Source of the DNA: Actinomycetes bacterium
GTDB lineage: Bacteria > Actinomycetota > Acidimicrobiia > Acidimicrobiales > Ilumatobacteraceae
Length of the DNA stretch: 64,000 nt
Direction: 5' to 3'
Assembly (NCBI GenBank): GCA_031415695.1
Contig: JANOSH010000001.1
Location: 43,988 to 107,987 of the forward strand
Shown here one piece after another: positions 5,401-9,220 of this stretch; the first letter of the stretch is position 1, and each line of letters starts with the position of its first letter. Under the pieces are notes generated by a model. It searched no databases. It saw nothing but the letters and a program-made list of their open reading frames with translations, and was not told the DNA's origin. The position numbers and the translations under genes were made by a program.

Positions 5401-6584
5401 CACATTCCAATACTCGACACGTCGCCAAGACGTATGCACACGGGAACGCCCGTCACAATGTCGTGTGGCTCTGCATCGTCGCCGAGAACGGAACGGACGG
5501 GGTCTAGACGTATCTGAGATGCCTGCATTCCAATGCCGAGCCGGATGGTTCCAAAATCGGTCGAGCTCCGATCACGTTCCCACAGGCGTCGGGTTCGCAG
5601 GTGGGCACGGCGATGCAGTTCCCCAAGGTCAGGTGCCTGTTGGCGACGTTCGGCTTGTTCATCGCTGAGCGCTAGCTGGACCTTGGCGGACAACTCAGCC
5701 AGCTGCTCTCGGTACGACCGCTGCTCGCGTCGATTCGATCGACGTCCATGTACCCGATCGTCGAGCCAGGCAAGGAAAACAACGAGCGGGCCGGCCGCCA
5801 CCAAACCAACAGTCAGCCAACCTCTACCGCGGCCAACCAGAAGGGCGGCGCCGCTGACGAGGGGTAACGCCAAACCAACCGCAGCGAACCGACGAGGCGG
5901 TCGTACGGCGGGTGGCGCCGGGACCGGGCCAATGACCCGAGGAGTAACCAGCGTTGGCCGATACGGCGTTCGATGAAACGCAATCTGACCCTGACGATCA
6001 CGTTGCTCGGCGCTCGCCTCGTCAGTGGGGCGTATTGCAAAAGACACGTCGCCCAGGGTCACCACCGATGTTCGACTCAGGGGCGCCTGGTCGACGGGTA
6101 TCTGATCCACAAGACAAGTACCCGCCGCCAGGCGTACATGAGGGACGCCCTCGCTGGGAAGCTCGATGATCACGCTGTTGTCGCCAGCACCCTGCAACCG
6201 AACTGCACCCGGACATGTACCGACCGCGACCGAGCCAGACGGCAACAAGATGAAACGACCAGCCTCGGGCCCAGCCAGTACGTCGAGCGACGCAACGGGC
6301 GGGTGCACAGCAATACGGCCGCCGACGGGTGCCACCATGTACGTCGTCGGAACAAGGTCGAGTTCGTCACCAATCAGCAATCCCGAATCGACTAGTAGAC
6401 CATTGGGTACGACCAGCCCGGTTCGGATCAGAACGAGACGGCATCCATGCGCTGGTTCGCCGAGATGAGTCGAGAGCGCCTCGACGAGATCGGTGACTGT
6501 GTGATCGGGCGCGCACGCAAGTCGCAAGGGAGTTGGCTCGTGCGAGCGCGACCGGGATCCAACAACAAGGAGCAGTTCCATCAT
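2457..6584 (-). CDS. FtsK/SpoIIIE-family triple-ATPase, type VII secretion EssC/EccC-like, with N-terminal ubiquitin-like/FHA-like region and 2 TM helices
   Basis: It has three P-loop ATPase domains (LVAGTSGSGKSEFL; VVLGTSRSGKSTTL; LLVAGPPGSGRSSVL) with FtsK-type DEF/DGF Walker B regions. The N-terminus has a beta-grasp-like region (MMELLLVVGSR...LVDSGLLIGDELDLVP) and an FHA-like stretch (VTLGDVSFAIRP), followed by two TM helices (FAAVGLALPLVSGAALLV and WLTVGLVAAGPLVVFLAWL). The start was moved from the ORF-track Met to the ATG at 6582-6584, which forms an ATGA overlap with the upstream stop. Confidence 0.85.
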   Translation of the reverse strand: MMELLLVVGSRSRSHEPTPLRLACAPDHTVTDLVEALSTHLGEPAHGCRLVLIRTGLVVPNGLLVDSGLLIGDELDLVPTTYMVAPVGGRIAVHPPVASLDVLAGPEAGRFILLPSGSVAVGTCPGAVRLQGAGDNSVIIELPSEGVPHVRLAAGTCLVDQIPVDQAPLSRTSVVTLGDVSFAIRPTDEASAEQRDRQGQIAFHRTPYRPTLVTPRVIGPVPAPPAVRPPRRFAAVGLALPLVSGAALLVGRGRGWLTVGLVAAGPLVVFLAWLDDRVHGRRSNRREQRSYREQLAELSAKVQLALSDEQAERRQQAPDLGELHRRAHLRTRRLWERDRSSTDFGTIRLGIGMQASQIRLDPVRSVLGDDAEPHDIVTGVPVCIRLGDVSSIGMWGDGVTTTGLVNSALLQCATLHSPQDLVVACALHPSRQPSWLNWLPHSRSTTSPVIGELVTTTAPDADRLLSGVLSVLAERNAPQSQAQAFPWLVIVVDERVGANPALVAAVQLSLNHASLVWLGDSEALVPRGCGAVIDCRTTGQGRLWLTDATKPVVDVELELASTVAATRHARALAPLTDADALGSTAALPARVVLSDVLSATFGDRSHIENNWAHADPRTLKIPIGVTNDGVFTLDLVGDGPHMLVAGTSGSGKSEFLQTLVAGVVAQYPPHHVTVLFIDYKGGASSAAFDGLGHVVGSVSNLEPAMSLRALVSLQAELTRRMTLFEGRARDLDEMLDVAPHDAPPRLLLVVDEFATLVHEVPDFVNGLIDVAQRGRSLGIHLVLATQRPTGVVSDKILANMNLRVALRLLDSAESSSIIGSGAAADIPVPLRGRALVRTGPKALSAVQVAWAGAPTATSRSEPVRVTPLGDAFAPLSKGPASTGDQLRQLVEVAVQVCSDHPAPHRPWTPPLTDNIGLAGLASSGGLLLGVVDRPDAQCQDVWSIDLERTGGLVVLGTSRSGKSTTLRTAALSWAREEPPSRRRILAIDLAGGGLRELGGVPHCIGVAGPDDMEHLTRLFGWLDNEMNRRRKTRRGGRLVDDTDTAEPAILVVIDGFANLTTLFHRSDTARWADIAMRATLEGRSVGIHVVVSADRRIAVPGQVLAAVSARLTLRQSDRDSLVDAGVPASIAASASWPAGRGWIDGHLVQVATASADMIAPVGATLLAPSLPDRVSPFSTATWWDLPLGLSDLDLDVVRADLRYDHLLVAGPPGSGRSSVLRAVRESLSNTGGVVVADARDGVERLTELLGSDTPAVVFVDDAARFDGSLVEPLLERAVRSSTVRLVVAVDSRILGPMYVAGWLGDLRRTRQVLALQPVPGDIQTAAGFALRPGLEFPAGRGVLMTERRSVVVQASTSCQKSHNARETATQCPPLL

Positions 6585-9220: not shown

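Follow-up and report, generated by a model that had tools for sequence, protein, structure and literature searches.

A predicted membrane protein joining LysM, EccC-DUF-like pseudo-ATPase and SARP modules is encoded with the Tad pilus genes of an Ilumatobacteraceae bacterium

In this study, we analysed a stretch of 64,000 nucleotides from the genome of an Actinomycetes bacterium of the Ilumatobacteraceae (GenBank assembly GCA_031415695.1, contig JANOSH010000001.1, positions 43,988 to 107,987 of the forward strand), hereafter referred to as the window, and followed up one gene located among its Tad pilus genes, which a first-pass annotation had described as a ToxR-like one-component regulator. 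We found that the encoded protein of 879 amino acids, hereafter the target protein, combines four predicted transmembrane (TM) helices and a LysM domain with a middle domain that resembles the DUF domain of EccC and has a degenerate nucleotide site, and with a C-terminal SARP module, and that the family to which it belongs is linked near-obligately to Tad operons. As a tentative reading, to which we give somewhat less than an even chance, we propose that the target protein is a wall-anchored, probably oligomeric and membrane-tethered SARP activator dedicated to the Tad cluster.

The gene and the parts of its product are arranged as follows, with positions numbered along the window and amino acid residues (aa) along the target protein:

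6581-9220, minus strand: gene for the 879-aa LysM / TM / EccC-DUF-like / SARP protein, stop codon at 6581-6583 (open reading frame (ORF) and translation)
9217-9220, minus strand: GTGA overlap of the tadE stop and the target start (direct reading)
8840-9196, minus strand: three N-terminal TM helices, aa 9-30, 58-84 and 101-127, with a +6 loop, RRPRHRR (aa 84-100), predicted to be cytoplasmic (hydropathy and charges; AlphaFold2 helices at aa 2-32, 56-87 and 95-114)
8555-8734, minus strand: LysM domain, aa 163-222, predicted to be extracytoplasmic, beta-alpha-alpha-beta with an insertion before the last strand (AlphaFold2 and family profile)
8351-8554, minus strand: Pro/Ala-rich disordered linker, aa 223-290, predicted to be extracytoplasmic (AlphaFold2 pLDDT <50 over aa 225-296)
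8258-8350, minus strand: TM4, aa 291-314, and RRRRQKR, aa 315-321 (hydropathy and charges)
7325-8257, minus strand: cytoplasmic stalk helices and an FtsK/EccC-type P-loop-fold domain without Walker A, aa 322-632
7028-7324, minus strand: OmpR/SARP-type winged helix-turn-helix (wHTH), aa 633-731, with the recognition helix at about aa 690-707 (TFANVVSDARRSL) (Foldseek and profiles)
6584-7027, minus strand: bacterial transcriptional activation domain (BTAD), a TPR-like helical bundle, aa 732-879 (AlphaFold2 pLDDT >90; Foldseek and hidden Markov model (HMM) alignments)

The best homologues of the 879-aa protein match at E 1e-100, which shows that the ORF at 6581-9220 is real, and an identical protein with the same start is present in a public collection (P0001), together with 26 homologues. 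A longer version of the ORF starting at 9358 was considered and dropped. The start is GTG 9220, because the N-termini of the 26 homologues align there and the database protein has the same start. This codon (9220-9218) lies on the tadE stop codon TGA (9219-9217), and the target is translationally coupled to tadE via the resulting GTGA overlap, as the first-pass annotation had stated.

When the single 879-aa sequence was scanned with Pfam and NCBIfam, no domain match was obtained, even at E<=1. The significant HMM matches on which the first-pass annotation had staked its domain calls were thus missing from the single sequence, whereas LysM and BTAD were recovered via homologues, profiles and AlphaFold2. 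The blank Pfam result is a false negative, because Pfam searches of the homologues, family profiles, AlphaFold2 and Foldseek recover the domains. For these analyses, we used one set of 27 sequences, consisting of the window protein and the 26 homologues, and one set of 46, consisting of the window protein and 45 matches to a profile of the middle domain. The AlphaFold2 model built from the 27-sequence alignment has a mean pLDDT of 78.6 and a pTM of 0.65, with pLDDT values above 90 for the LysM fold (aa 164-222) and for most of aa 630-879. The names under which the homologues are held in databases also reflect these domains: 'LysM peptidoglycan-binding domain-containing protein', 'BTAD domain-containing putative transcriptional regulator' and 'YgaU/DNA-binding SARP family transcriptional activator'.

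A Foldseek search of the model against the PDB returned the SARP AfsR as the top match (8hvr_I, E 3e-7, TM-score 0.69 on the target), followed by EmbR (2ff4, E 2e-6). The family profile matches the SARP domain of AfsR at E 4.5e-8, with profile positions 723-985 aligned to residues 27-285 of the chain, so that the match spans the wHTH as well as the BTAD. With Pfam, BTAD was detected in 14 of the 27 and in 21 of the 46 homologues, and Trans_reg_C in only one of the 46. The broad family profile also matches the wHTH domains of CadC (E 0.0037) and ToxR (E 0.14). The wHTH and BTAD calls made earlier from the sequence are hence borne out by both the profile and the structure searches.

Next to this overall similarity, the residues that could contact DNA were compared with those of AfsR. 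In the cryo-EM structure of AfsR, S46, Q48, W74, P79, S80, Q81, R87, T88, S91, R92, R94 and K95 contact the DNA, and Q48, W74, P79, T88, R94 and K95 are conserved among SARPs (PMC10936776). We mapped AfsR residues to the target protein via the HMMER alignment, with an offset of 20 in the chain numbering, and counted conservation in 100 family members:

AfsR W74, target W684: W in 92/100 members
AfsR T88, target N695: N in 52 and T in 21 of 100 members (73 together)
AfsR S91, target S698: S in 73/100 members
AfsR R94, target R701: R in 94/100 members
AfsR K95, target R702: R in 55 and K in 10 of 100 members (65 together)
AfsR Q48, target S658
AfsR P79, target V688: not kept
AfsR R87, target A694: not kept
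AfsR R92 (base-reading), target D699: D or E in the target's subfamily

Few peptides of the Acidimicrobiia subfamily are as conserved as the recognition helix, and NVVS[DE]AR[RH][SAG]L provided one of the two scan patterns for the survey of loci described below. To judge from the alignments, this conservation is compatible with, but no proof of, a working DNA-binding surface that has a specificity of its own.

The SARP module is the part of the protein on which the two most probable explanations divide. One could argue that the target protein is a purely structural or assembly subunit of a monoderm Tad machine, in which LysM acts as a wall anchor, the DUF-like domain forms a ring or docks on the TadA/TadB/TadC platform, and the SARP module has been turned into a TPR-like surface for protein contacts that plays no part in transcription; we consider this alternative doubtful, though a serious one. 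What stands against it is that both halves of the module are kept across a divergence down to about 25% identity, and that W684, S698, R701 and R/K702 rank with the most strongly conserved residues, which is hard to explain without DNA binding. In addition, SARP modules occur solely as DNA-binding activators in two papers on these proteins (PMC10972967, PMC10936776). For these reasons, we favour an activator function, and also because SARPs are typically cluster-situated activators (PMC10972967) and membrane-tethered wHTH activators have precedents in ToxR and CadC.

The first-pass annotation had placed about 500 residues of the target protein in the cytoplasm. The predicted topology agrees with this placement, but these residues are not just a linker to the SARP module, as aa 322-632 make up a separate folded domain. 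In the full-length Foldseek search, the SARPs were followed by EccC3 of the ESX-3 complex (6sgw_F, E 7.7e-4), by the 'DUF' domain of EccC5 (8rin), FtsK motor domains and the coupling protein TcpA, and further fold matches of the middle domain were T. curvata EccC, EccC3, TcpA and YukB with its DUF. The family profile matches 8rin_A at E 0.035 when built from 27 sequences and at E 0.0017 when built from 100. The FtsK-type alpha/beta P-loop fold is therefore present in the middle domain, while its nucleotide-binding motifs are gone: GK[ST] was found at the P-loop position in none of the 100 aligned family members, and the same alignment has no hhhhDE motif of a Walker B type after the W542-x-P544 strand. 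A D-L-E strand before the P-loop position is conserved at 87, 95 and 99%. The DUF domain of EccC5 is likewise degenerate and binds no ATP, and it is proposed to have retained the capacity for hexamerisation (PMC11154593). Based on these sequence comparisons, the middle domain has the same degenerate nucleotide site, and the order of the cytoplasmic part is TM4, stalk helices, EccC-DUF-like pseudo-ATPase and SARP module. For a purely structural subunit, these are favourable findings, since the EccC DUF is a structural element of a membrane machine that may hexamerise (PMC11154593) and since the loss of the Walker motifs makes the domain scaffold-like.

The membrane topology of the target protein was derived from a 19-residue Kyte-Doolittle scan, the charges of the loops and the positive-inside rule only. 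Four hydrophobic segments are seen in the Kyte-Doolittle scan, at aa 9-30, 58-84, 101-127 and 292-314. The N-terminus carries a charge of +2, aa 31-57 have a net charge of -2, aa 84-100 (RRPRHRR) have +6 and aa 128-291 have a net charge of -8, and RRRRQKR follows directly after TM4, where R318 is invariant or nearly so across the family alignments. Read with the positive-inside rule, these charges predict that aa 128-291, which include the LysM domain, are extracytoplasmic, and that the N-terminus lies in the cytoplasm together with aa 315-879. AlphaFold2 models helices where the hydropathy scan has the TM segments. This agrees with the earlier proposal of N-terminal TM helices, an outside LysM domain and an internal TM helix followed by RRRRQKR.

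In the AlphaFold2 model, the LysM domain consists of a strand at aa 164-168, helices at aa 175-183 and 186-196 and a strand at aa 218-222. Pfam detects LysM in 15 of the 27 and in 37 of the 46 homologues, and the family profile matches LysM structures of the PDB at E 2.7e-8 when built from 27 sequences and at E 3.6e-15 when built from 100. Among these matches are LysM structures of pilus systems, such as TsaP (3jc8), which is a further point for a structural subunit. The Pro/Ala-rich linker between LysM and TM4 differs between homologues in length as well as in sequence. In the N-terminal bundle, a glutamate at the cytoplasmic end of TM2, E81 (nt ~8978-8980), belongs to the motif E-x-x-A-x-x-R-G-R and is kept in 90% or more of the family, and P25 and W68/W71 of the bundle are conserved alongside it. 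This suggests that the three-TM bundle is kept for more than anchoring, and one might speculate that it senses pilin or contacts the machine.

We turned from the protein to its operon. Upstream of the target gene, the window contains the following Tad genes:

9217-9591, minus strand: tadE pseudopilin gene, probable start ATG 9591 (Pfam TadE E 8e-12)
9593-9816, minus strand: flp prepilin gene, 74 aa (...DDAG/FTTVE...; sequence reading)
9886-11151, minus strand: ORF of tadC, real start probably near 10765 (Pfam T2SSE/T2SSF scan)
10761-11621, minus strand: tadB (Pfam T2SSE/T2SSF scan)
11591-12949, minus strand: tadA (Pfam T2SSE/T2SSF scan)

Relatives have a small conserved gene between TadC and TadE, as is the case for flp here. 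To place the family, we searched 1.84 billion cluster representatives (50% clustering) with the profile of the middle domain and obtained 3855 proteins at E<=1e-3, of which 1907 reach E<=1e-30. The best 150 profile matches are mostly 900-1200 aa long and have the middle domain at the same relative position. A pattern scan of one genome per species, based on an alignment of 10 closer sequences, gave 266 loci, and the best 80 of these, which were examined, belong almost all to metagenome-assembled genomes (MAGs) of Acidimicrobiia or Ilumatobacteraceae. An upstream flank longer than 5 kb is available for 55 of the related loci, and 54 of these encode TadA 2.4-4.5 kb upstream in the same orientation. 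Many loci, including the window, have the chromosomal frame map ... tad ... target ... radA in common. Gene-called contigs of distant lineages, namely a plasmid of Nonomuraea (L001), three MAGs (L003-L005) and a linear plasmid of Streptomyces (L086), all have the homologue at the end of the operon. The order in these lineages is SAF(CpaB)-x-TadA-TadB-TadC-Flp-TadE-TadE-TadG-like-[homologue], and the start of the homologue often overlaps or abuts the preceding gene. The link between the family and Tad operons is therefore near-obligate. That a SARP in such a place is unusual, as the first-pass annotation had put it, holds for the literature that we searched but not for genomes, which contain thousands of family members. 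The near-obligate and operon-terminal position after the pseudopilin genes, with starts that often overlap even in very distant lineages, is what would be expected of a structural subunit of the machine.

A tblastn search against plasmids gave 56 records, of which 42 are from Streptomyces, all under the same automatic names. Several of the distant loci have neighbours of other kinds. The tad operon lies beside genes for a replication-relaxation protein and an ATP/GTP-binding protein in L086 (Streptomyces sp. NBC_00057 linear plasmid, 1107-14682), beside a gene for a VirD4/TraG-type coupling protein in L003 (571-2334) and beside genes for FtsK_SpoIIIE and WXG100 proteins in L004 (1-2153). FtsK and TraB have a membrane-anchored FtsK-type domain followed by a winged-helix DNA-binding domain, an arrangement that the target protein would echo, and it could be argued that the family handles DNA for uptake or conjugative transfer through a Tad-type pilus. 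We regard this as very improbable. It would account for the frequent occurrence on actinobacterial plasmids, for the replication-relaxation and coupling protein genes in L086 and L003 and for the FtsK motor and TcpA coupling protein structures among the fold matches. However, the P-loop is dead in 100 of the 100 members examined and the domain is therefore no motor, the wHTH belongs to the OmpR/SARP type, is joined to a BTAD and is not of the FtsK-gamma type, and the Acidimicrobiia loci lie in conserved chromosomal synteny (map ... tad ... radA), where no mobile-element genes were detected.

On its other side, the target gene of the window is followed by a second large gene:

2457-6584, minus strand: gene for an EssC/EccC-like ATPase, 1375 aa (Pfam FtsK_SpoIIIE E 1e-52; translation)

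Its start codon ATG 6584 overlaps the target stop codon TGA (6583-6581) in an ATGA, and the encoded protein has two TM helices and three P-loop domains (GSGKS, RSGKS and GSGRS). By eye, its N-terminal region looks ubiquitin-like and FHA-like. The same gene pair is present in the closest relatives (L006, L007, L008 and L011). This raises the question of whether the target protein could be the membrane partner or adaptor of the EssC/EccC-like ATPase in the clade of the window, with the DUF-like domain stacking on the EssC-like hexamer in a Tad-linked secretion or translocation device. Both the ATGA coupling and the shared gene pair are in its favour, as are the EccC DUF and ATPase domains as best structural matches of the middle domain and the FtsK_SpoIIIE and WXG100 genes that adjoin the tad locus of L004. 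We nevertheless think that such a role is improbable, as the EssC-like gene lies directly downstream of the target gene in only three of the 63 related loci with enough downstream flank (and in L011, where the flank is shorter). Furthermore, the EssC-like protein brings two TM helices of its own, an hhalign comparison of the middle domain with it was non-significant (probability 0.4%), and Pfam found no other core gene of a type VII secretion system, with WXG100, EccB/D and EssA/B all lacking a match among the neighbouring genes scanned. Since it occurs in only three of the 63 loci, the EssC-like gene is a clade accessory and does not explain the whole family.

Coming back to the proposed membrane-tethered SARP activator, we envisage that LysM would hold the target protein on the peptidoglycan at the site of the pilus machine and that the EccC-DUF-like domain could serve in oligomerisation or docking beneath the membrane, as proposed for the EccC DUF. 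The SARP module would bind phased direct repeats at a promoter of the tad cluster and recruit RNA polymerase as AfsR does, and the expression of the pilus genes would thereby be tied to the state of the envelope or of the machine. Co-transcriptional membrane insertion of the membrane proteins of the operon may keep the locus near the tethered activator.

Classical SARP sites are heptamer direct repeats in 11-bp units (PMC10972967), and SARPs bind such repeats close to the -35 region and activate transcription. The window contains one candidate for such a site, in a spacer of 104 bp that separates map (15878, plus strand) from the leading gene of the minus-strand string:

15815-15835, minus strand: candidate SARP-type box, two copies of TTGTCAGGTT in exact 11-bp register

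The same region holds CACAAGG twice at 22-bp spacing (15756-15784, minus strand), the second copy of which overlaps a ribosome-binding site. The 10-mer TTGTCAGGTT has one more exact copy, at 24512-24521 on the plus strand. Other repeats of 8-11 nt at 11-12-bp spacing are found in the map-tad spacers of L014, L016 and L032. The 11-bp repeat is a candidate site only, with an unproven tie to the target protein, and we do not claim it as a binding site because it is missing from other loci and from the closest relatives.

Several observations weigh against an activator function. The 10-mer of the window is absent from 85 other loci, and the repeat is directly followed by two genes (15157-15774 and 14438-15136) that are missing from the closest relatives L007, L008 and L011, in which the tad operon comes directly after map and the map-tad spacer has no 11-bp phased repeat. 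No consistent phased repeats were found in the TadC-flp spacers of 50 loci, nor any upstream of the operon in the plasmid loci L086 and L001, and no DNA target of the protein emerged from these searches. The lack of a convincing DNA site in the locus spacers, in the TadC-flp spacers and in the plasmid loci is at the same time a point for the structural alternative. Among the AfsR contacts, P79, R87 and the base-reading R92 are replaced by V688, A694 and D699. Hydropathy is the sole basis of the topology assignment, and LysM is an anchor and not a known signal sensor. Finally, the strict operon-terminal place, the large size, the LysM domain and the EccC-DUF-like domain are typical of machine subunits at least as much as of regulators. 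The first-pass reading as a regulator is fair as far as the tethered wHTH goes, but a gene so fixed at the end of Tad operons across Actinomycetota, in 54 of 55 loci and on Streptomyces and Nonomuraea plasmids, fits a machine component just as well. A broader idea, which we think unlikely, is that the family is an unrecognised core part of monoderm Tad machines, which would link the peptidoglycan (through LysM), a ring of EccC-DUF-like pseudo-ATPase domains beneath the membrane that is docked to TadA/B/C, and DNA (through the SARP module), so that the assembly state of the machine would gate the transcription of its own genes. On plasmids and in competent species, the protein might instead pass DNA to or from the Tad apparatus.

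Some further observations were made in the spacers and leaders of these loci. A scan of 2-16 kb of the window for sigma-70 promoters and terminators performed no better than on shuffled sequence. Of the two genes downstream of the 11-bp repeat, both on the minus strand and without a Pfam match, 15157-15774 codes for a predicted secreted protein of about 200 aa (likely ATG ~15747) and 14438-15136 for a hydrophobic protein of 232 aa. The map-tad spacers of L007 (~4720-4760), L008 and L011 contain an inverted repeat, GACCAGA...TCTGGTC, which is not seen in the window and could be the operator of a different, dimeric regulator. The flp leaders of about 50 loci are C/A-rich up to the ribosome-binding site (CCAACCAACC, CCCGAACCCGAACC and similar; examples are L025 1704-1800, L076 7312-7390 and L083 8047-8100), which may be a conserved property of the mRNA leader of the pilin gene.

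The remaining genes of the window are those of an ordinary chromosome (DnaK, SNF2 helicase, Fpg, Map and RadA-like). A region at 39221-46350 has a G+C content of 0.65-0.69 compared to ~0.61 around it and codes for a 1079-aa patatin/DUF3376 protein, a divergent 940-aa protein without a Pfam match and a protein with a metallo-beta-lactamase fold. It may be a horizontally acquired block. An ORF of 117 codons at 2144-2497 has no Pfam match and was not counted as a gene.

Our literature search found no publication that describes a LysM-SARP family of Tad operons, and in databases its members have automatic, domain-based names. To our knowledge, the anchoring, the passage through the wall and the expression control of Tad/Flp pili in monoderm actinobacteria are poorly understood, and we know of no obvious counterparts there of the diderm parts, namely the secretin, TadD and RcpB/C. 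As the family is large and almost always operon-terminal and combines an anchor, a scaffold domain derived from a secretion ATPase and an activator module in one protein, it is a concrete and testable candidate for wall anchoring as well as expression control. If our proposal is true, SARPs would extend from soluble regulators of antibiotic clusters to membrane-integrated proteins of a surface organelle, and the enigmatic 'DUF' domain of EccC would gain a second context. The presence of the module on many Streptomyces plasmids makes genetic tests feasible.

The target protein shares features with several known systems and differs from each of them. In EccC, the DUF is followed by three active FtsK/SpoIIIE ATPase domains, whereas in the target protein the DUF-like domain is followed by the SARP module. 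EccC goes with ESX genes and the target's DUF-like domain with Tad genes, and the identity between the DUF of M. tuberculosis EccC5 (PDB 8rin) and the middle domain of the target is about 12%. Compared to FtsK and the TraB translocases of Streptomyces, the target family lacks Walker A in all members examined, its wHTH is of the SARP/OmpR type with a BTAD, and it has a predicted external LysM domain in addition. With TsaP and FimV, LysM proteins that anchor type IVa pili in the wall, the target protein shares a LysM domain, here predicted to be extracytoplasmic, in a pilus-associated envelope protein. FimV has an outside LysM domain, a TM segment and cytoplasmic TPR-like repeats. Both proteins belong to diderm type IVa systems and have neither a wHTH nor an FtsK-like domain, and homology to the target was detected in LysM alone.

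Like ToxR, TcpP and CadC, the target protein is predicted to have a wHTH on the cytoplasmic face of the membrane and an extracytoplasmic domain on the opposite side. ToxR-like regulators begin with a cytoplasmic wHTH, cross the membrane with one TM helix and end in a periplasmic sensor, whereas in the target protein the sensor or anchor comes first and the wHTH last, four TM helices replace one, a BTAD is present, about 310 residues of stalk and globular domain separate the wHTH from the membrane, and a LysM takes the place of a ToxR/CadC-type sensor on the outside. The first-pass description as a ToxR-like one-component regulator therefore holds for the membrane-tethered wHTH and is incomplete otherwise, since a pseudo-ATPase of about 300 aa lies in between, the order is reversed and there are four TM helices instead of one. 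With the SARPs AfsR, EmbR, ActII-ORF4 and DnrI, the target protein has in common an OmpR-type wHTH directly followed by a BTAD bundle, a gene located inside the cluster that it may control and several of the DNA-contact residues, others of which are replaced. In the small, medium, large and SARP-LAL classes, the SARP module is located at the N-terminus of a soluble cytoplasmic protein, and neither membranes nor LysM are mentioned in the SARP review of 2024 (PMC10972967). In contrast, the module of the target protein is C-terminal (aa 633-879) and is combined with a four-TM anchor, a predicted external LysM domain and an EccC-DUF-like domain, and its gene belongs to a pilus operon rather than to a biosynthetic cluster. 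The target protein resembles a SARP on a ToxR-style tether, yet it lies outside both groups as they have been described.

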